A stretch of 20,000 nt of DNA from an uncultured virus (IMG/VR IMGVR_UViG_3300043466_003414) (IMGVR_UViG_3300043466_003414); one strand, 5' to 3'. Positions 2,443 to 10,850 are shown, numbered from the stretch's first letter. Numbers and translations: made by a program. The notes: generated by a model not told the origin, from the letters alone.

Positions 2443-5361
2443 TTATAATTTTCCCCCTTGTTCAAATCTTGAATCGGTAATCAAAGCATTAAACTCTGTT
2501 GCTGTTGTAAACTTAATTTGGTTACTATCAAAAGCACAAAACGACAATGAAGCACCATCTAACCCAGTACCTACTTTATCTGGATGGTATTCGTAAAAAA
2601 TATAGCCATCATAAGTAGTTGCCATTTTAACATACTCGGTAAAGCTTTGCCAATTTCTAATAATCATCCACGAATAAACCAATGTGTCTTGAGCCAAGTT
2701 GTTAAACAATCTAAAATTAGTCCAAAAGTCAAAATCCCCTATATTATAGTTTATTTGTAAAAACATAAGAAAATCGCTTACTGGTCTTTTTTCAACTCCA
2801 AATCTTGAGAAGTCAATTGGATTTTTTATATCCAAGAAGCATCTATAAAGATATTCGCCTTTATTTGGGTTTAAAGCTTTTAAAAGGTTTGAATCTTTTG
2901 CCGAAACATCTCCTCTCCCTTTTGACCATTGCTCTGCAAACCATTGAGAGAAATCTCTATTTTTTGCAAAATAATGTGCATTGTTTGTTTTATATGTTTT
3001 CCATTCAGTAAACAATACGTTAGTACCATGATAAACTGGCATAGGTTCTTTTGTTTCTGGGTCAATAACTTTTGAAACACCACTAAAGTCGCCAATTTCA
3101 TTAGCCAATCTCCAATCTCCAAAAAACGAACTAAAATATGGACTTCTTACATTTACCCATTCTTCATCGGTTAATTTTGTCGGCAAACCATTTGGAGCTA
3201 ACAAATCTTTTGATGGAGTAAACTCGGCATTTATATTGCCCCATTTCAAAGCATAAGCACTTTCTAACCTATCTTTTAGTGGTAAAAACTCTAATTCTTT
3301 TTCATTGGCTATTCTTAATTTTTCAATTAAGTTATTAATATCCCTTTGGTAAAAACCTATTTCTTCATTTGAAAGTCTTGGTTTTTTAAAATTCAACTCT
3401 TTTGTTAAATCGGCAATTCTTAAAGTCAAATATTTTTTAGTTGCTTCAAAATCAATTCTTACTTCTTCTTTTATTGGCTTTGGTTGTGGTGCTGGAGAAG
3501 GTTCTTGATTAAAAAAATCAGTTAATTCTTTAACAGACATTTTTTCTGGAACATTCTCTTTCCCACGAAATAATGCAGATAAATCAACATTAGGGAAATA
3601 GTTAACAAAAAACCTATCAAGAATACCTAAAGGAACTTCGTTTATGTTGAAGTGTCTTATATCTTCATTTTCTTTTTGCAGATAAAAAGAATCATTAGCT
3701 ATGTAAGTTCCTCCTATTCTCTCTAAATCTATTGTAACTTTAACATCTCTATCTGAAAAAACTTTTAAATATTCAAAAAAAGCAGAAACATAAAAAAAAG
3801 AATCCTCTGCTATTAAATTATTGTTTTCTACAATTGAAAATCTAATACGAATAGCTTTTTCTTTTGTTGGCTCTGGTTGTGGTTGAGGTTTTGGTGTTGC
3901 TTTACCTCCTAACCAATTAGTGAAATCTAAATTATTTCTTCTAATAGTAGAACCATATCTTCTTTCTAATTGTTTGTAGAAATCAGAACTTTTACCAGTC
4001 AAAGGATTAAAATTCAAAACAGTATTCTTGGTATTTTTAAATTGAATAGCTAATCTTGTTGGTGTTATTTTTTCTCCATTTTTTAAAACATAAAAATAGA
4101 AATAACCGCCAAATTTATTTTTGTCAATAAATACACTTTGTAAATCAGAAAGAAATTCTTTGTAAGAATTATATTCTGTTTTAGGCATACTGCCAGAATA
4201 AGTTGCACTTGAGCTGTCTAATCTTATAGCATCTACTTGATTAGTAGTTGCACCGCCATCGTCAAATTTTTCTACCGCTTCGTCTAAAAAGTCTAAATTG
4301 CCACCATCGGCATACAAACCAGTTTCAGCACCAACTTGACCATCAACACCTACATCCATTAAATCATTATAATTATTCAAATCTCTTGATGGATGGTCGC
4401 CTTTTTTAGATTCTTTTGATAAATCTAAATTGCCCCCTCTTTTTAATCCTACTTTTTTCAAAATAGTATAGTAATTTGGATTTTCGTACAAATGGTCTTT
4501 TACGATTTTCATTTGTTCTCTTTTTGATGAGGTATGTTCGATTTCAGCTTTTAATCCTAATTTAACTTGATTATTAATTTCAGACAAAGTTACATTATGC
4601 TTATCAGCAATTTGTTTTAATGTCATTCCTTTAGATAAATGACCACCAGTATTCATTTTCAATTCATTTGAATCTACTTTTGATGCTTTACCGCCCATTA
4701 CTGCACTATAAACCCTTGCCATTGCCCATTGTTCTTTTGACTTAACGTTTGGTCTTACACTTTCTGGATTTGTTTTATATGCACCTATACCTTTATTGTA
4801 AATTTGTTGCAATCCTTTTATAGAAATTCCAGTATCTTTTGAAATTTGTTCTAAATCATGCGAAGTACCTTTAGGGTATTTGAATTTTTTGTTATATTTA
4901 TCTTTATAAGTTACTACGCCACCTTTTTTATATTCACGCTCACTACCACAATCGTTCATGCTTTGCATAATTTCATAATCGGTCATGGTTTTACCACCAT
5001 AATTGTAGGAGCTACCATTGAAATAAATTTCTCCACCATTCTCTAATGAAACACCACCCCCTTTTTCGTTGATTTTAGACAATATTTCTCTATTGGTAAG
5101 CATTTGTCCTTCAAACTCTCTTTTTGTTTGGTCTGCAACGGCTGGTGCGGTAATAATTACTTCTCCACCTTGAACCTCAATTGGTTGTCCAGTAGATTTA
5201 TTAATACCTTTTATTCCGCCCTCTTTATGTAATTTGCCTACAAAGTAGCCACCTTGAGTTCCTTTATCGTGAATTATTGTTTGACCTTCTCTTTTACCAA
5301 CTAAAACTCCCCCTGCTGGAGATTTTTTAGCTTTTTGTTCAGTCATTATATCTTTTTTCAT
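2443..5361 (-). CDS. Large polyvalent protein: N-terminal GxxHxxGGI..EVxGGE module, DUF5824-like, DUF5661-like, two unknown domains, C-terminal ART-PolyVal-like ADP-ribosyltransferase
   Basis: C-terminal LAPNG..VRSPYFSSFFGDW..SKVID..EPMPVYHGT..HYF..FLDIKNP..YDGYIF..FDSNQIK matches the ART-PolyVal pattern; SKDTGIS..LQQIYNKGIGAY..QWAMARVYS resembles DUF5824; LGLKAEIEHT..IVKDHLYENPNYYT resembles DUF5661. Confidence 0.75.
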   Translation of the reverse strand: MKKDIMTEQKAKKSPAGGVLVGKREGQTIIHDKGTQGGYFVGKLHKEGGIKGINKSTGQPIEVQGGEVIITAPAVADQTKREFEGQMLTNREILSKINEKGGGVSLENGGEIYFNGSSYNYGGKTMTDYEIMQSMNDCGSEREYKKGGVVTYKDKYNKKFKYPKGTSHDLEQISKDTGISIKGLQQIYNKGIGAYKTNPESVRPNVKSKEQWAMARVYSAVMGGKASKVDSNELKMNTGGHLSKGMTLKQIADKHNVTLSEINNQVKLGLKAEIEHTSSKREQMKIVKDHLYENPNYYTILKKVGLKRGGNLDLSKESKKGDHPSRDLNNYNDLMDVGVDGQVGAETGLYADGGNLDFLDEAVEKFDDGGATTNQVDAIRLDSSSATYSGSMPKTEYNSYKEFLSDLQSVFIDKNKFGGYFYFYVLKNGEKITPTRLAIQFKNTKNTVLNFNPLTGKSSDFYKQLERRYGSTIRRNNLDFTNWLGGKATPKPQPQPEPTKEKAIRIRFSIVENNNLIAEDSFFYVSAFFEYLKVFSDRDVKVTIDLERIGGTYIANDSFYLQKENEDIRHFNINEVPLGILDRFFVNYFPNVDLSALFRGKENVPEKMSVKELTDFFNQEPSPAPQPKPIKEEVRIDFEATKKYLTLRIADLTKELNFKKPRLSNEEIGFYQRDINNLIEKLRIANEKELEFLPLKDRLESAYALKWGNINAEFTPSKDLLAPNGLPTKLTDEEWVNVRSPYFSSFFGDWRLANEIGDFSGVSKVIDPETKEPMPVYHGTNVLFTEWKTYKTNNAHYFAKNRDFSQWFAEQWSKGRGDVSAKDSNLLKALNPNKGEYLYRCFLDIKNPIDFSRFGVEKRPVSDFLMFLQINYNIGDFDFWTNFRLFNNLAQDTLVYSWMIIRNWQSFTEYVKMATTYDGYIFYEYHPDKVGTGLDGASLSFCAFDSNQIKFTTATEFNALITDSRFEQGGKL

Positions 5362-5380
5362 AATTAGTTATAATAATTTT

Positions 5381-5388
5381 CAAATGTA
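5381..5388 (-). promoter_or_regulatory. Bacteroidota -7 promoter element (TACATTTG) for the polyvalent-protein operon
   Basis: caaatgta on the + strand = TAnnTTTG on the - strand, about 20 bp upstream of the ATG at 5361; no TTTG at the -33 position. Confidence 0.6.
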
Positions 5389-5473
5389 ATAAATTCTATT
5401 GAAACATAAAAATCATATTATTTATAATAAGTTTTATATTTTAAACAAAATTAGGCATTTAATATTTTTTTGC

Positions 5474-5481
5474 TACATTTG
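5474..5481 (+). promoter_or_regulatory. Bacteroidota -7 promoter element (TACATTTG) for the 38-aa peptide gene
   Basis: Exact TAnnTTTG match 36 bp upstream of the ATG at 5518, followed by an A/T-rich leader. Confidence 0.6.
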
Positions 5482-5517
5482 TTGGAATAAATATTTATTA
5501 ACTTAAAATTTTAAATC

Positions 5518-5634
5518 ATGGGTGCAGGATTTTTTGACATCAAAAGTGCTAACTGGTTAGGTGGAAATAACGTACACAATACGTTAATCATCTTGGGAGT
5601 TGGTTACTTGGTTTACAAAGCTTACAAAAAATAA
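5518..5634 (+). CDS. 38-aa small membrane protein MGAGFFDIKSANWLGGNNVHNTLIILGVGYLVYKAYKK (not in the ORF track)
   Basis: ATG..TAA in an intergenic gap; own promoter and terminator; hydrophobic segment followed by a basic tail; higher GC than its flanks. Confidence 0.8.
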   Translation: MGAGFFDIKSANWLGGNNVHNTLIILGVGYLVYKAYKK

Positions 5635-5650
5635 TTTGTAGTTTTTAGCC

Positions 5651-5684
5651 AAAAAAATACCCACCGAATTGGTGGGTTTTTTTT
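5651..5684. terminator. Bidirectional intrinsic terminator
   Basis: A7-T-ACCCACC-gaatt-GGTGGGT-T7 hairpin between convergent genes (stops at 5634 on + and 5686 on -). Confidence 0.9.
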
Positions 5685-5685
5685 A

Positions 5686-5955
5686 TTAGTTTGGATAAAT
5701 TCTTTTAATTTTCATGTTTGGATTATTTTTTTGAGTAAAAATTAACACACCATCATTTCCTTCGGTATAATAAATAATTTCAGCATCATTTTCTCCAGTA
5801 TCTATTGCTTTGCAATTGTTTAATACAATTGTTTCTTTTTGATTTTGAAAAATAGCTTCTACAAAATAAGAAAAAACTTTTCTGTCAAAACCAGATTCTT
5901 CTAATTCTTTAAAAGAAATGGTTGTTCCAGTAATTAAATCTTCATGATTTTTCAT
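5686..5955 (-). CDS. Hypothetical protein
   Basis: 89-aa ATG ORF, last gene before the terminator. Confidence 0.7.
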   Translation of the reverse strand: MKNHEDLITGTTISFKELEESGFDRKVFSYFVEAIFQNQKETIVLNNCKAIDTGENDAEIIYYTEGNDGVLIFTQKNNPNMKIKRIYPN

Positions 5956-5993
5956 AATCTTTTTAGCACTTTACCTTGCAATCGGTTTCTTGG

Positions 5994-7271
5994 TTAAATT
6001 AATTTTAAAATTATTTGTTCAAACTTTTTAGCAATATCTTTCCACTTCCACTTTGTAACGTGGTTGTATGCGTTTTCGATAATATTCTTAACTTGTTCTT
6101 GAACTTCTGATTCTTCATTTTGAATATTGTAAACAATACCGCAAACTTGAGCTACTTCCTCTGGGTTTGAAATAAATCTAATTTTCTCAAAGTCATTTAC
6201 AAAAACGGCTCTTTGCATGAACTTAAATAAGAAAGCGTTATTACCATTATCGGTAATTTCTTGTATAGAAGTATGTCTTGGTGCAACAACTAGCTTTTTA
6301 GTAGCCATTGCTTCCACAATACTTAACCCCCAACCTTCCGCTGTCGTAGTTGTAATGAAACAATCAAAAGTGTTGTAGATTTTATTTAATTCGGATTCGG
6401 AAATACCATTATTTTCGTTAAAATCTTTTGGGAAAAATATGTCAGTTCCAACATCCAAACCTAACCTTTCAGATAATCTAAAACAATCAATACCCATTTT
6501 GTCTTTTGGGTTACAATGTAAGTACAAAACGGCATTAGCTTGAGTTGTATGCTTGAACATAGCAAATCCAATCATAAGGGTTGCTAAATCCTTTCTAGCT
6601 GAATTACGATTAACGCTACCAAACACAAAAACATCATTTTTTCCGAAAAGTTGTTCTTTGGTTTTACTTACTTCAAATTTGTTGTCAATAGGGTAAAACA
6701 CTTCGGTATCTATTCCATGAGGAATAACTTTTATTTTTTTCCAGATAGATTCTGAAACAAGTGGTTTTAAAGTTGCTTTACCATACTCGGTATAAGTAAT
6801 TACTTCATCAAATAAATTTAGCACCCCACAATCGCTTGGTCTTGGCTCACTATCTATTGGAGTATATAAAATGTACTTGGTTTTCTTTTTGTTGGCTTTT
6901 GCACGTTCTTTTTTTACGTTTGCCAAATGCTCGGTCATAGAGTTAAGCACCTCAATATCGTTTAGTGCAAAAAACACATCGTAATTTTCCGCATATAGAG
7001 TTTTAAGCAACTCTAATCTCGCATAACTATCTTTGTTTTCATCGGCTACCAAACATGGAATTACAAATACATTAGGTTTGTAGTTGTATGGTTTTTCCGA
7101 TAAGTCATTAATAGCTAATACTACAATGTTGAAGTTTTTATTTTTGCTCCAGTTATCAATTAGTTGTTTCGATACGTTACCGAAACCAGTTGTGCAATTA
7201 AAATCCCCATAAAAGAGGATATTTGCAACTTTGTCTGCTTTTTTAGTCTTTTGGCTGTGTACTACTTTCAT
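5994..7271 (-). CDS. Glycosyltransferase, GT4 (GT-B fold)
   Basis: N-terminal TGFGNV, VIPHGID, NRNSARK, EGWGLSIVEAMA (E-X7-E) motif. Confidence 0.92.
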   Translation of the reverse strand: MKVVHSQKTKKADKVANILFYGDFNCTTGFGNVSKQLIDNWSKNKNFNIVVLAINDLSEKPYNYKPNVFVIPCLVADENKDSYARLELLKTLYAENYDVFFALNDIEVLNSMTEHLANVKKERAKANKKKTKYILYTPIDSEPRPSDCGVLNLFDEVITYTEYGKATLKPLVSESIWKKIKVIPHGIDTEVFYPIDNKFEVSKTKEQLFGKNDVFVFGSVNRNSARKDLATLMIGFAMFKHTTQANAVLYLHCNPKDKMGIDCFRLSERLGLDVGTDIFFPKDFNENNGISESELNKIYNTFDCFITTTTAEGWGLSIVEAMATKKLVVAPRHTSIQEITDNGNNAFLFKFMQRAVFVNDFEKIRFISNPEEVAQVCGIVYNIQNEESEVQEQVKNIIENAYNHVTKWKWKDIAKKFEQIILKLI

Positions 7272-7281
7272 TTTTAAAAAT

Positions 7282-7527
7282 TTAATATTTTTCCATTACT
7301 ACTATTCCATATATATAACTATCTCCTCCTGCTAAAGATTGAGATTTTAAAATCCATCCTTTTTTCATCATATTTCCTATAAAAGAAGATTGTTTTTCTG
7401 TTTCGTAAAAATGTTTTACAATAAAATGTTTTGGCGTAGCTGGTTTAACAGTCATTACGCTAACTGTTGTTGCGGAAGTTAGGATTATTAATGCAATTCC
7501 TAACATAAAATAAAATGCTTTTTTCAT
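7282..7527 (-). CDS. Small membrane-anchored or secreted hypothetical protein
   Basis: ATG at 7527 (MKKAFYFMLGIALIILTSA) directly after the upstream stop; N-terminal hydrophobic helix. Confidence 0.7.
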   Translation of the reverse strand: MKKAFYFMLGIALIILTSATTVSVMTVKPATPKHFIVKHFYETEKQSSFIGNMMKKGWILKSQSLAGGDSYIYGIVVMEKY

Positions 7528-7528
7528 T

Positions 7529-8509
7529 TTAGTTTTTTTCGTAAATTTTAATTCCAAATAATTTGAAGTATTTAACTTCTTTTGGTTCTATTTTAGGTTT
7601 TATGCTCTTAAAGGATTTTTTTTGTTCCAAAACTTCAATTTCAATTTCTTGCTCCTTTATAACTTTTTTTGCTTCGTCAAGACTTTTTTGTGCATCTTCA
7701 AATCTTTTCTTGTAGCTTTCGGCTGAAGCTTTTTCTGAATTTAATGAATTTTCATATCCTTGAATTTTATTTTCTTGTATCTTAATTATTTTTAACGATT
7801 GTTTTAAGTTTTCTTCCGTTTCAAAAATTCTTTTTTTGTAGCTTTTATTTGCAGTTTGTTGTCGAGTTAAAGCTTCTCTTTCTTTTTTCAGTTCCTCTTG
7901 TAATTGCTTATACTTTATATTAAGCGATTGTAAATCTTGAGCATAAGAATTTGGAAACAATTCTTCAAGCGTAGGCTCTCTATGTTGAATTTTTAATTTT
8001 GAATTTTCTACTGATTTTTTTTCTGATAAAATTTCACTTGCTCTTTTTATCGCATCTTGCCAATTTTCATCTTTTTCTCTTATTTCTTTAGCTAAAGTCA
8101 TTGCTGTATTTCTAGGTTTAAAAAGACCTTCGTTAAAATGAAAAAAAGGATGGTCAAAATTTTCTATCAATTCTTCCGAAGTTGAAATAGCATCTTGTTT
8201 TTTTTGCCTTTGCATTATTTCTTCTCTTGATTTTATAGCATTATTGTATAAAAAATCAAATATATGATAGTTTAAATTTCTTCGGAAATTCCATTTGTAA
8301 AACTTTTTTTTACCTTCTTTTTTGGCAATTTTAATGTAATCTTTAGATACTAAATTTTCAAATATCTTATAATTATATATCGATGAATATTTTTTGCTTA
8401 TTTCAAAAGTTGCCATTTGATTTTCTATCAAATCATCTCTCATTTTTCTTAAATCACTAATCATTCTTTTTTTAGTGAAAACCGTTCTTTTTTTTCTAGT
8501 GTTTTCCAT
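7529..8509 (-). CDS. Hypothetical protein with basic N-terminal domain and long coiled coil
   Basis: ATG at 8509 (MENTRKK) lies downstream of the conserved promoter/leader; heptad-rich C-terminal half. Confidence 0.75.
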   Translation of the reverse strand: MENTRKKRTVFTKKRMISDLRKMRDDLIENQMATFEISKKYSSIYNYKIFENLVSKDYIKIAKKEGKKKFYKWNFRRNLNYHIFDFLYNNAIKSREEIMQRQKKQDAISTSEELIENFDHPFFHFNEGLFKPRNTAMTLAKEIREKDENWQDAIKRASEILSEKKSVENSKLKIQHREPTLEELFPNSYAQDLQSLNIKYKQLQEELKKEREALTRQQTANKSYKKRIFETEENLKQSLKIIKIQENKIQGYENSLNSEKASAESYKKRFEDAQKSLDEAKKVIKEQEIEIEVLEQKKSFKSIKPKIEPKEVKYFKLFGIKIYEKN

Positions 8510-8520
8510 TTCTAATAAAG

Positions 8521-8578
8521 TTTTAAAGTTCAAGTTTCAAAAATACAAAATATTATTTTAAATACAAAATATTATTTT
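8521..8578 (-). promoter_or_regulatory. Conserved phage promoter with tandem palindromic operator (copy 1)
   Basis: TTTG(8568-8565)-N19-TATTTTTG(8545-8538); AAAATATTATTTT at 8547-8559 and 8566-8578; leader TGAACTTTAAAA at 8532-8521. Confidence 0.8.
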
Positions 8579-8602
8579 AGATATAATTTATTATTTTTAA
8601 TA

Positions 8603-9280
8603 TTAATCAATTCCTTGCTCCCTATTATCAGATAAACTCATTACATGATATGTAGGTGGGTGGTTTGTTGCTTTAGCGTTTATTCCAAATTTAGCCATTG
8701 CTTCTATTAATGCCCAATCGTGTCCATAGTGTTCGTTATGGGTCGGCATTGTTTTTAAAAACTCGGTTCTAATGATTAATTCGCTATGTCCAATCATTCC
8801 ATATTGAAGTTGTGCTATTCTATTTGCTCGTCTAGGTGCTACATAACTATCGAAATACATAAAGTCATAATTAGTATTTTCAATAGCCGACAAATAGTTT
8901 TCAAAATGGTTTGGCAAAATAATATCATCGTTAGCAAAAAAAGTAAAGTATTTACCTCTAGCAATTCTAATGTTTTCATTGGTTATAAAGTAACCATGAC
9001 CCCCTTGATTAATCTTGTTGTTCGTTATAATAAGTTGGTTTCCTTTTGCTTCGCAATCCTTTACAATATCAGCAAAATAATTGCTATCTATGAAGTCTTG
9101 CATAATAGGACAACCATCTCCAGTAACAAGTGCTTCCCAATCGTTTGCCGTTTGGTTTGCAATACATTCAATTGCTCTTATAGTACCTTTTCTTCTACCG
9201 AAACAAGGCATTGAAACAGTCAACCTAAATTCGGTTGAAAAGTAATCGTGGTTAGTGCATGGATTCTTCATGTCTTTCAA
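8603..9280 (-). CDS. Glycosyltransferase, GT2 (GT-A fold)
   Basis: LTVSMPCFGR, ANQT..WEALVTGDG, ARGKYFTFFANDD (DxD-like), HDW motif. Confidence 0.85.
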   Translation of the reverse strand: MKDMKNPCTNHDYFSTEFRLTVSMPCFGRRKGTIRAIECIANQTANDWEALVTGDGCPIMQDFIDSNYFADIVKDCEAKGNQLIITNNKINQGGHGYFITNENIRIARGKYFTFFANDDIILPNHFENYLSAIENTNYDFMYFDSYVAPRRANRIAQLQYGMIGHSELIIRTEFLKTMPTHNEHYGHDWALIEAMAKFGINAKATNHPPTYHVMSLSDNREQGID

Positions 9281-9965
9281 TCATTTTTTCAAATTCAGCA
9301 CAAATATCCAAAACCATTTCGTAACTCCATTTTTGTTTTTGGTAGTCGTTTTCCTTTATATATTTAGCTGGGTTTCCAACATACGTTCCAAAGCATTGCA
9401 CGTTTACTTTTTTAGTAACAATAGAACCCATACCTATCATTGCATAAGAGCCTATTTTAGAGTATTGGTGGCAAATACTACCTAATCCCATATTTACTCC
9501 AACTCCAAGCAAGGAATGACCCCCAATAAGCACATTGCAACTAATCGTGCAATCGTTATTAATTTCGCTATCGTGTCCAATATGCGAACCCCTTAACATA
9601 GTTATATTATCGCCTAATTGAGTTGGCACAAAACAACCAGCATTAATCGTTACATATTCTCTAAAAACATTATTGTTTCCAATATAAGTTCCTTTATTTT
9701 TTTTGCCGAAAAAATCTTTATGTTCTGGCTCGTTTCCTATTGAACAAAAAGGCTCAAACACATTATTGTCGCCAATCCATGTTTTACCTTGAATTACTAC
9801 ATAAGCACCAATTTTGTTGCCTTTTCCAAGTCTAACATTTTTTCCGATTATTGCGGTTGGGTGGATATGATTATCTCTTACCATTTGCATAAATCTTTTA
9901 GTAGGTTGAGTAGCTGTATCGGTAGTGTAGTATTGTTTTTGAAATGGTGTTAAATCGCTCATCAT
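9252..9965 (-). CDS. LpxA-like hexapeptide-repeat (left-handed beta-helix) acyltransferase
   Basis: IHPTAII start, hexapeptide repeats, REYVTINAG, HIGHD, CHQY and GNPAK motifs as in UDP-GlcNAc acyltransferases; the C-terminal helical domain is short. Confidence 0.85.
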   Translation of the reverse strand: MMSDLTPFQKQYYTTDTATQPTKRFMQMVRDNHIHPTAIIGKNVRLGKGNKIGAYVVIQGKTWIGDNNVFEPFCSIGNEPEHKDFFGKKNKGTYIGNNNVFREYVTINAGCFVPTQLGDNITMLRGSHIGHDSEINNDCTISCNVLIGGHSLLGVGVNMGLGSICHQYSKIGSYAMIGMGSIVTKKVNVQCFGTYVGNPAKYIKENDYQKQKWSYEMVLDICAEFEKMIERHEESMH

Positions 9966-10210
9966 CTATAAGTTTTTGGTGTTATTTGACAATGAAAACC
10001 TTTTTTACAATCCAAAACATCGTATGGGTTAATCCCACTCCAAAATAACTCGAATTTAAAAACTTCTTTCTCTTTATACTTAAATAAGTAGTAACCACTT
10101 AATATTGACATATATTCAATCCAAGTATAACCTCTTACTACATGGATTCTTTCTGGTGCTGGTTTTAGTTCGTCTAAATCTTCAGCTTTTTTAGATTTTT
10201 TAGTTAGCAT
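9962..10210 (-). CDS. Hypothetical protein
   Basis: 82-aa ORF tightly coupled to its neighbours (ATGA overlap). Confidence 0.7.
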   Translation of the reverse strand: MLTKKSKKAEDLDELKPAPERIHVVRGYTWIEYMSILSGYYLFKYKEKEVFKFELFWSGINPYDVLDCKKGFHCQITPKTYR

Positions 10211-10211
10211 T

Positions 10212-10850
10212 TTATTTGTTGAATTTAGTTAAATATTTTTCTTCGGTAGGTAAGCCACCCCACATTTGAATATACATTTGTTTGTTTTGCATAAACTTTT
10301 GATTCAAAGTTGGGTCTTTGGCAATAGTCATTGAATTACGATAAACAATAGGGTCTAAAAATGAAGTCCATGTTTTCTTTGCTCCAACTAAAGTCATTTT
10401 ATAGTCAAAGCTATTATCTTCAAAATATGCTGGGAAAAACTCCTCGTCAAACATTCCTGCTTTTTTCCAAATATCTACTCTCAAAATGTAACTACACCAA
10501 TTGTGAAATGAATTTATGAAGTCGGCATCTAAATTGTTTTTTATTAGCATATACAAATCGGTTTCGTTTTTGCCTAAATAAATATCGTCATTCAGAATTA
10601 GTACATGGGTTGCTCCTATCTTATCAGAATAGTCCATAAGCATATTCCAACTTTTTGCAACTCCTAAATTTTCTTGAGGTCTATAAATCATGAAGTTTTC
10701 TTCACGAGTAATAATATCTTGGTTTCCATTATCACAAATTGCAATATGAGTATTTTTAAAATCCTCAAAGTATTTTGTAAGTGCTTCATTGAGCAAATCT
10801 GCTCTATTGATAGTCGGTATTGCGACTACTAGTTTAATTTCTTTATCCAT
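10212..10850 (-). CDS. Glycosyltransferase, GT2 (GT-A fold)
   Basis: VAIPTINR, ICDNG, NLGVAKSWN, ILNDD, GMFDEEFFPAYFED motifs. Confidence 0.9.
   Translation of the reverse strand: MDKEIKLVVAIPTINRADLLNEALTKYFEDFKNTHIAICDNGNQDIITREENFMIYRPQENLGVAKSWNMLMDYSDKIGATHVLILNDDIYLGKNETDLYMLIKNNLDADFINSFHNWCSYILRVDIWKKAGMFDEEFFPAYFEDNSFDYKMTLVGAKKTWTSFLDPIVYRNSMTIAKDPTLNQKFMQNKQMYIQMWGGLPTEEKYLTKFNK

Follow-up and report, generated by a model that had tools for sequence, protein, structure and literature searches.

Does a reading frame of 38 codons, standing alone on the plus strand of a virus genome whose credible neighbouring genes all lie on the other strand, represent a gene, and if so what would its product do? 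The frame lies in a 20,000-nucleotide stretch of DNA from an uncultured virus (IMGVR_UViG_3300043466_003414), which as a whole we call the window. The original prediction described it as the only credible plus-strand gene there, and as a very abundant small membrane protein that might belong to a virion membrane or coat, exclude superinfecting phages or resemble a toxin.

The survey of open reading frames fits this description. The stand-alone frame was confirmed at its predicted place (Table 1), all credible neighbours are on the opposite strand, and each plus-strand ORF of at least 60 aa in the window is overlapped by a longer minus-strand ORF. The minus-strand genes are phage-like and include a Cro/CI-type HTH protein, a replication initiator (Phg_2220_C), a DnaQ-like exonuclease, four sugar-modifying enzymes and an AAA_5 ATPase. 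The gap between the minus-strand genes that flank the peptide gene measures 324 bp and accommodates two promoters that point away from each other, the tiny gene itself and a terminator used from both sides; the GC content of the gene is 36%, compared with 29% in its surroundings. On its upstream side lies the gene of a polyvalent protein, for which 38 related loci were found in viral contigs. On its downstream side lies an ORF of 89 aa, which had no family match in PHROGs or Pfam and no relatives in viral contigs, and beyond it a glycosyltransferase gene whose product is at most 31.8% identical to GenBank phage records (30.5% in the best-ranked, full-length match).

Table 1. Features of the peptide locus, in window coordinates
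Feature	Position	Strand	Description
Polyvalent protein gene	2443..5361	-	972 aa; DUF5824, DUF5661, ART-PolyVal (Pfam); divergent from the peptide gene
Predicted divergent -7 box TACATTTG	5381..5388	-	Lies 20 nt upstream of the polyvalent-protein start codon (ATG, 5361)
Predicted -7 promoter box TACATTTG	5474..5481	+	Bacteroidota sigma-A type, TAnnTTTG
Predicted 5' UTR	5486..5517	+	32 nt, from the geometry of the -7 box; no Shine-Dalgarno sequence; A at -3 (5515)
Peptide CDS	5518..5634	+	38 aa; coordinates include the stop codon; reads MGAGFFDIKSANWLGGNNVHNTLIILGVGYLVYKAYKK
Predicted bidirectional intrinsic terminator	5651..5684	both	A run 5651-5657, hairpin 5659-5677, T run 5677-5684
89-aa ORF	5686..5955	-	Closes the convergent minus-strand operon; 9 nt separate its stop codon from the shared hairpin
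GT1-type glycosyltransferase	5994..7271	-	425 aa; phrog_2170 (E 1.8e-35), PF00534; conserved synteny partner on the downstream side

Homologs of the peptide proved to be numerous. A phmmer search of 1.84e9 representative proteins returned 11 matches at E ≤ 1e-3, mostly of 37-39 aa, and a search with a profile of the family recovered 429 clusters at E ≤ 0.01 among 2802 candidates. These clusters are 35-40 aa long with conserved start and stop; among the 120 of the 429 that were listed, none carries a Pfam domain and the names supplied all read 'hypothetical protein'. At the DNA level, related loci were collected from viral contigs with a degenerate DNA pattern (33 loci) and through the neighbouring polyvalent gene (three loci). 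Across 351 pairs from 27 distinct coding sequences pS was 0.69 and pN 0.25, with synonymous sites near saturation. Because the degenerate pattern fixes ten codons, pN/pS was recomputed with those codons removed, giving 0.48, and on eight sequences found independently of the pattern, giving 0.42 (pS 0.76, pN 0.32); the full range across the computations on the peptide family was 0.36-0.48. Conservation and dN/dS had been proposed alongside the original prediction among the means of checking it, and both came out in its favour. Judged by these substitution patterns, the ORF is a genuine protein-coding gene under purifying selection.

The distribution of the gene was assessed on records of at least 59 kb that were fetched through an unrelated conserved ATPase, not through the peptide pattern. 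The peptide was found in 10 of the 10 records obtained in this way, nine of them new and one already known, and seven of the ten are at least 90% complete. In the nine loci parsed from these ten records, the peptide gene is antisense to both of its flanks. The same arrangement holds among related loci generally: the ORF next downstream lies on the opposite strand in all 34 loci that have one, and the ORF next upstream does so in 22 of 26, the other four lying at a distance of 0.9-2.9 kb because the ATG-only ORF caller missed a long gene. An opposite-strand glycosyltransferase-like ORF of 396-428 aa occurs within the first few downstream ORFs at 31 of 35 loci. The peptide gene is a core gene of an uncultured Bacteroidota virus lineage, located between the replication and glycosyltransferase genes on one side and the polyvalent-protein gene on the other, and always alone on its strand.

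A promoter and a strong hairpin terminator of its own had also been attributed to the gene, and both attributions held. In the AT-rich window the -7 octamer has 40 matches against 40.2 expected, so that alone it is no better than chance, and its weight as a promoter derives from the conservation of its position in relatives. Of 28 distinct related loci, 22 have an exact TAnnTTTG whose end falls 21-40 nt upstream of the ATG, compared with 3% of random 45-nt windows, while the remaining six carry GATATTTG or CATATTTG, which by eye are one-base variants. Passages of PMC9723704 and PMC6847099 give a consensus for the Bacteroidota -7 box and place it at -12 to -5 in Flavobacterium; this geometry puts the predicted start site near 5486 and yields the leader listed in Table 1. 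The same passages describe an A at -3 as a positive determinant of initiation in the Bacteroidota phylum, and this base is present in the window gene and in 31 of 34 family loci. Equivalents of the divergent minus-strand -7 box were noticed by eye, without statistics, in loci L001, L002, L003 and L005.

The predicted terminator consists of a hairpin of eight pairs, five of them G-C, followed by a T run. A scan of positions 4500-7000 returned four terminator-like sites against 0.9 expected, and in 27 of 28 distinct loci the folding z of the 80 nt after the stop codon is lower than -2. One pair varies in a compensatory manner across 12 related hairpins, being GC in eight, CG in two and AU in two. 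The structure scores as a terminator on the minus strand as well, because an A run precedes the hairpin, and the short distance from the hairpin to the stop codon of the 89-aa ORF indicates that it closes the convergent operon also. By these features the peptide gene forms a transcription unit of its own, bounded by a -7 box of host type and a bidirectional terminator.

The codon usage of the gene points to strong expression. The codon counts first reported were exact (Ile 3/3 ATC, Tyr 3/3 TAC, Asp GAC and His CAC); in addition Asn is AAC at two of four positions and Phe is TTC at neither of two. Altogether 10 of these 14 codons end in C, compared with 504 of 2052 (24.6%) when 27 minus-strand ORFs are pooled (simulated P = 3e-4). 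The C-ending fraction stays at or below 0.32 in all other ORFs of the window, and strand asymmetry alone would predict about 0.13. Across the family 176 of 313 codons end in C where 79.7 would be expected from the long ORFs of each locus, and the fraction exceeds the own-locus background at 26 of 27 loci, the 27th having no background ORFs; with only 11-14 codons to count in each gene, and with loci that are related to one another, the result amounts to a consistent trend and not to a set of independent tests. In the related genomes G004 and G001 the peptide gene ranks first in codon adaptation, among 111 and 86 ORFs respectively, and the most conserved candidate structural protein, of 233 aa, ranks third in both. 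The preference for C-ending codons noted in this one gene is a property of the family, and the peptide, being both universal and the best codon-adapted gene product of the lineage, is probably among the most abundant proteins of these viruses. A search of sequencing runs returned only small shares; contigs from four runs labelled as RNA, two of them probably DNA, covered parts of the polyvalent and glycosyltransferase genes, and as none reached positions 5340-5609 they speak neither for nor against expression.

An alignment of 115 members revealed near-invariant residues at S10, L14, G15, G16, N18, V19, H20, N21 and K34, with L14, G15 and G16 conserved in 111-114 of the 115 sequences. The predicted shape is a neutral, conserved head of 21 residues (FDIKSPNWLGGxNVHNT) followed by a short helix, whose sequence varies among the 115 members with its hydrophobic character kept, and a Lys-rich tail. 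The head carries no net charge in 89 of 114 members, and the tail is positive throughout, between +2 and +4 (114 of 114). AF2, run on the family alignment, modelled a loop at residues 1-18 and a helix at 19-37 with a pLDDT of 80.7. The description of the product as a membrane peptide was borne out in part: the modelled helix and the basic tail agree with it, but the hydrophobic core comprises 11-13 residues and the best 19-residue hydropathy is only 1.03, below the usual threshold of 1.6. On account of this short and weakly hydrophobic core, the peptide is likely, though not certain, to span the membrane, and it may sit at the membrane surface or be non-membrane-bound.

Searches of Pfam, PHROGs, NCBIfam and PADLOC matched the peptide to no family; below the cut-off there were only hints of CcoM (E 0.07) and SpoVM (E 0.0013) for two relatives. 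No ESM Atlas match exceeded 0.79, and Rfam gave only sub-threshold, terminator-like matches on the locus. The family is unannotated and without a relative of known function.

The related genomes range from about 52 to 132 kb, and seven genes of the window lie in synteny with G004 (84,420 bp; 100% complete according to CheckV). G004 has an exact terminal inverted repeat of 127 bp; this length is also a common assembler word length, and the repeat may be an artefact. No cultured relatives were found among 50,697 GenBank phage records in searches with the locus DNA, the peptide, the window, the ATPase and the 233-aa protein, and a search of article full texts found no paper describing the lineage or the peptide. 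The peptide had two hits in 185,579 species genomes. One is on a 132-kb contig in a Sediminibacterium MAG; as this contig has virus-like ends and no host genes among 20 ORFs tested, the assignment of Sediminibacterium as a host is only a lead. The other comes from an archaeal MAG, in which it sits on a contig of 4.3 kb. We infer Bacteroidota hosts from three features: the type of promoter, the lack of a Shine-Dalgarno sequence and the AT-rich DNA. A tyrosine integrase was found in none of five records, and the lineage appears to consist of virulent phages.

The particle-building genes of the lineage are almost wholly unrecognisable. Searches of G001 and G004 in full against PHROGs and Pfam identified no recognisable capsid, portal or terminase, and PHROGs matched only 2 of 29 central ORFs of G004. 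Terminase_6N, Phage_capsid, TerL_ATPase, Terminase_3, Phage_portal and FtsK_SpoIIIE (PF01580) were each found in none of five records (complete ones, for FtsK_SpoIIIE), absences that do not prove the genes to be lacking. The choice posed at the outset, between an HK97 capsid with terminase and a jelly-roll capsid with an FtsK-type ATPase, thus met with neither marker set in recognisable form in the relatives.

Two further proteins are conserved in the relatives. The first is a P-loop ATPase of 272/273 aa, 53% identical between G001 and G004. Its best Pfam match is DUF87/HerA, at 26.1 bits in G001 (cut-off 23.2) and at 17.8 bits, below the cut-off, in G004, and a profile of the ATPase matched HerA among PDB sequences at E 0.016, over the P-loop only. 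A weak match to phrog_2666 had suggested a split terminase, a candidate that was dropped with DUF87/HerA as the best Pfam match. The ATPase gene is followed by a TM ORF of 37-42 aa and then by that of the second protein, of 233 aa, which is 62% identical between G001 and G004 and is represented by 1382 clusters. Its AF2 model has a beta-sandwich core, with pLDDT values of 68-94 per 10-residue block. The jelly-roll fold matches are weak (best Foldseek E 1.8e-3, best VIA Z 5.7) and mixed: capsid parts of PR772, phiCjT23, FLiP, PM2 and PRD1 (P3) are among them, but so are tail proteins, and many are fibre heads of the C1q/TNF-like type. Five of five further peptide-bearing records contain the ATPase as well as the 233-aa protein. 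A protein of 325/355 aa encoded upstream of the ATPase was considered as a capsid candidate and dropped, being by eye charged and of low complexity.

Downstream lie many small ORFs with a single TM segment: 17 in G004 (35.1-44.0 kb) and 22 in G001 (20.5-31.3 kb). TM-bearing ORFs account for 34% of the total in G004 and 40% in G001, compared with 38% in PRD1 and 16% in lambda, as counted by a rough hydropathy criterion on ORFs called from ATG alone, with these two genomes as the only controls. By the same counts C-terminal TM anchors number 15 in G004 and 21 in G001 versus 1 and 3 in PRD1 and lambda, and the longest uninterrupted series of TM ORFs comprise 8 and 11 members in the G004/G001 pair. 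The abundance of small membrane proteins that characterises viruses with an internal membrane is thus found here, within the limits of this crude method and its two controls. The anchors of this cohort resemble the helix and tail of the peptide, having a Gly/Ala/Val/Leu-rich helix, an aromatic residue and a Lys-rich end (e.g. ...GLGVGALFLVYLAYKLIKR).

We tentatively favour the view that the peptide is an abundant structural or assembly membrane protein of a virus-specified membrane. Among the possible explanations it appears the most likely, because the gene is core, its codon class is shared with the candidate major structural protein, and its style of anchor is shared with the cohort. The peptide would enter the membrane without a signal peptide, along the route that the Pf3 coat protein and other small N-out/C-in proteins take; following the positive-inside rule, the neutral conserved head of 21 residues would come to lie on the trans (periplasmic) side and the Lys-rich tail in the cytoplasm. 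Produced in very large amounts for this membrane, it would be both the smallest and the most plentiful among 15-21 phage proteins with a like anchor, and a separate strong promoter and terminator would allow its dosage to be set independently of the surrounding long operons. Against this reading stands the location of the gene: some 20 kb separate it from the membrane-protein module and the ATPase, which are on the other strand, and the structural genes of PRD1 lie inside late operons.

PRD1 provides one comparison. Its small membrane proteins P20 (42 aa) and P22 (47 aa), encoded next to the packaging ATPase P9 and the capsid protein P3 and carrying a 'DNA packaging' label in the PRD1 record, are like the peptide in size and in having a single helix, and about one third of PRD1 ORFs have a TM segment, as in the relatives. 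There is also a likeness in gene order: in PRD1 the P9 ATPase is followed by gpi, P20, the P3 capsid protein and then small membrane proteins, and in the relatives the ATPase is followed by a tiny TM ORF and the beta-sandwich protein. However, P20 and P22 have no sequence similarity to the peptide, and they are encoded inside a same-strand late operon whereas the peptide gene is a lone antisense unit distant from the ATPase. Moreover, the PRD1 genome is 15 kb in length compared with 52-132 kb here, where a lipid membrane and a jelly-roll capsid are hypothetical.

The major coat proteins of Pf3 and the inoviruses, which are 44-50 aa long, offer a second comparison. They share with the peptide an uncharged or acidic head, a hydrophobic helix and a basic tail, the lack of a signal peptide (Pf3), very high expression and, as far as it can be predicted for the peptide, N-out/C-in insertion. 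These coats belong to filamentous ssDNA phages of 6-10 kb, whereas the peptide is encoded in a large dsDNA virus genome and has a shorter hydrophobic core; no similarity between them was found in Pfam, PHROGs or NCBIfam.

A more specific form of the structural reading is that the peptide is the major protein of the lipid membrane of a previously unrecognised Bacteroidota virus lineage of 52-132 kb, one with no recognisable HK97 set but with a HerA-like ATPase, a jelly-roll-type core and 15-21 anchored proteins. We regard this as doubtful. The option of a virion membrane protein in a putatively lipid-containing virus gained indirect, if unexpected, support from the ATPase, the level of TM proteins, which is PRD1-like in genomes of 52-132 kb, and the likeness of the anchors. 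On the other side, PHROGs match a 'short tail fiber' in G001 (E 2e-28), and fibre proteins of collagen-like type are encoded there too; these fit a tailed phage and speak against a membrane-containing particle, as does the possible artefact in the terminal repeat of G004. If the proposal is true, there would be membrane-containing phages several times the size of PRD1 that obtain a bulk membrane component from a lone antisense gene. Particles containing lipid would widen the known size range of membrane-containing phages, and the peptide would then serve as a simple metagenome marker and as a handle for virion proteomics.

Alternatively, the peptide could act on the host envelope, the main rival explanation, which we think somewhat unlikely although several features would suit it. 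From a host-type promoter it would be expressed immediately upon DNA entry and insert into the inner membrane, where its periplasmic head would bind an envelope component and thereby keep out the DNA of other phages or shut down some function of the host membrane. A sigma-A-type promoter and a terminator of its own, and a position opposite the long operons and beside the replication module, speak for such a role. So is the conservation of the head, which far exceeds that of the helix (S10, L14, G15, G16, N18, V19, H20, N21) as would befit a binding surface, and the distribution of charge fits the N-out/C-in topology. However, known exclusion genes and morons are accessory and patchy, whereas this gene is present in all ten large relatives. 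The lack of a tyrosine integrase in the five records makes expression from a prophage unlikely, the top codon rank alongside the structural candidate suits a bulk component better than a stoichiometric inhibitor, and PADLOC returned no hit. The proposals of an exclusion factor and of a toxin-like peptide have both lost ground, since the gene is core rather than accessory.

The same consideration distinguishes the gene from phage morons. Morons such as bor and lom, both annotated in the lambda record, are likewise promoter-gene-terminator units inserted between operons with a higher GC content, and here too a promoter (22 of 28 loci) and a terminator (27 of 28 loci) accompany the gene. Morons vary between relatives, whereas the peptide gene was found at the same position in 10 of 10 records and within the same synteny in 35 loci, and its composition is explained by apparent codon selection. 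A small phage membrane protein encoded in an autonomous unit is of a known kind; what is unusual is that this one is a core gene, not a moron, in a lineage whose particle genes are dark.

A role in the timing of lysis, as a tiny holin-like or holin-modulating protein, strikes us as improbable. A single helix, a charged C-terminal tail and strong expression would be appropriate, and a function needed by all lytic phages would explain the core status of the gene. Holin genes form a lysis cassette beside the endolysin gene, but in the window there is no endolysin near the peptide gene. In G001 the endolysin (phrog_894, E 9e-38) is encoded about 9 kb away and has its own adjacent two-TM ORF of 85 aa, so that the part of a holin appears to be taken there by another gene. 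The peptide matched no PHROG lysis family, and at 38 aa, with a hydrophobic core of 11-13 residues, it is shorter than known holins.

We also give little credence to the idea that the peptide is processed. Here the glycines at positions 15-16 would be cleaved as a double-glycine leader or as a GlyGly-CTERM-like sorting signal, and either a cationic hydrophobic peptide of 22 residues would be released or a head of 14-16 residues would be released or linked to lipid. Tripartite sorting signals consist of a motif, a helix and a basic cluster, and the peptide resembles them in this order as well as in the strong conservation of L14, G15 and G16. Six polar residues separate the glycines from the helix, however, the leader lacks, by eye, the usual hydrophobic/acidic pattern, and AF2 treats the glycines as a mere break before the helix. 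NCBIfam, which contains sorting-signal models, returned no hit at E ≤ 10, and the Pfam hits of the window include no processing enzyme, neither a peptidase-containing ABC exporter nor a rhombosortase, although an exporter might be supplied by the host.

A toxin of type I is very improbable. In this scheme the mRNA would be held in check by antisense read-through of the minus-strand operon across the shared terminator, and the convergent arrangement does mean that read-through transcripts would be fully antisense to it. The peptide has the size and shape of small prophage toxins; BsrG of SPbeta likewise is 38 aa long and hydrophobic with a charged end, and is transcribed from its own promoter with a shared 3' end. 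In contrast to BsrG, no dedicated antisense RNA gene was found at the locus, where Rfam gave nothing above threshold, and the gene is core in apparently virulent phages, in five records of which no integrase was found. Its optimal codons and the A at -3 suggest maximal translation rather than repression.

Finally, the notion that the frame arose by chance in an untranslated regulatory spacer holding two divergent promoters and a terminator, which could appeal to the need for a terminator and a promoter in the 324-bp gap in any case and to the chance-level frequency of the octamer, is effectively refuted by the profile clusters with their conserved length, start and stop and by the retention of amino acids at near-saturated synonymous sites, and is further opposed by a codon bias that is in frame. 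Genes this short are routinely missed by gene callers. The lineage is widespread, as seen from the 429 clusters of the peptide and the 1382 clusters of the linked 233-aa protein.

Among the 52-132 kb records of the virus lineage, including the relatives G001 and G004, no capsid, portal or terminase was recognisable using Pfam or PHROGs. The lineage does encode a small HerA-like ATPase as well as a 233-aa beta-sandwich protein that is highly conserved (1382 clusters); both were found in these two relatives and lie outside the window. The share of membrane-protein ORFs in G001 and G004 is similar to that of PRD1, and C-terminal anchors consisting of a helix and a Lys-rich end are numerous among them. 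We suggest that the lineage may be a membrane-containing virus group.

The record G005 was found to hold a 406-aa single open frame (G005:C1:17396-18406) in which the beta-sandwich core of the 233-aa protein occurs twice in tandem (E 6e-29 and 3e-30), along with additional, shorter paralogues of this protein. The 38-aa peptide can also be doubled: P0012, a 79-aa family member from a contig of only 1155 bp, is a single open frame with two complete copies, indicating a tandem duplication that is either fused or read through.

Inverted terminal repeats are assigned to four records: G004 (ends L078 and L082), G009, G011 and G015. The G004 repeat measures exactly 127 bp, a word length commonly used by assemblers, and may therefore be artefactual.

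The polyvalent protein encoded divergently from the peptide gene is a mosaic, as judged by sequence comparison. DNA shared between the window and G001 is limited to 4294-5687 and 5953-7296 (85-94% identity), and the protein alignment is confined to the first ~380 residues (79% identity). The C-terminal parts are unlike, with ART-PolyVal in the window versus RusA-like and processivity-factor-like matches in G001.

Location of features in the window and in related loci
Feature	Location	Strand	Remarks
Polyvalent protein gene	window 2443-5361	-	G001 counterpart L075:5133-8375
Sugar-modifying gene cluster	window 5994-10850	-	GT1, GT2, hexapeptide acyltransferase, second GT2/TAGT-like enzyme
HNH endonuclease gene	L075:8702-9067 (G001)		phrog_59, E 3e-43
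51-aa single-helix protein gene	L005:1800-2100	minus strand of locus	own TAAATTTG box

Between the two divergent promoters lies an AT-rich, near-palindromic TATTATTTATAATA-like motif (window 5418-5432), which could be an operator. It recurs in the same spacer of five related loci (L001, L002, L003, L055 and L068), picked out in every case by eye only, and its distance to the -7 box varies. At the more distant polyvalent-gene locus L005, the gene in the divergent position encodes a 51-aa protein unrelated to the peptide; the positions of its charges suggest a topology opposite to that of the peptide.

On the downstream side, an HNH endonuclease gene separates the peptide gene from the glycosyltransferase in G001, the closest relative, and the window carries an 89-aa ORF alone at this site. 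The sugar-modifying set of G004 additionally includes FkbM methyltransferases, a GT9 heptosyltransferase-like domain and a PAP2 lipid phosphatase. What these enzymes modify may be DNA, the virion or the host envelope.

One peptide-family member is carried by a 4.3-kb contig (L077) binned with a Bathyarchaeia MAG, most likely because the contig was misbinned and not because the host is an archaeon.
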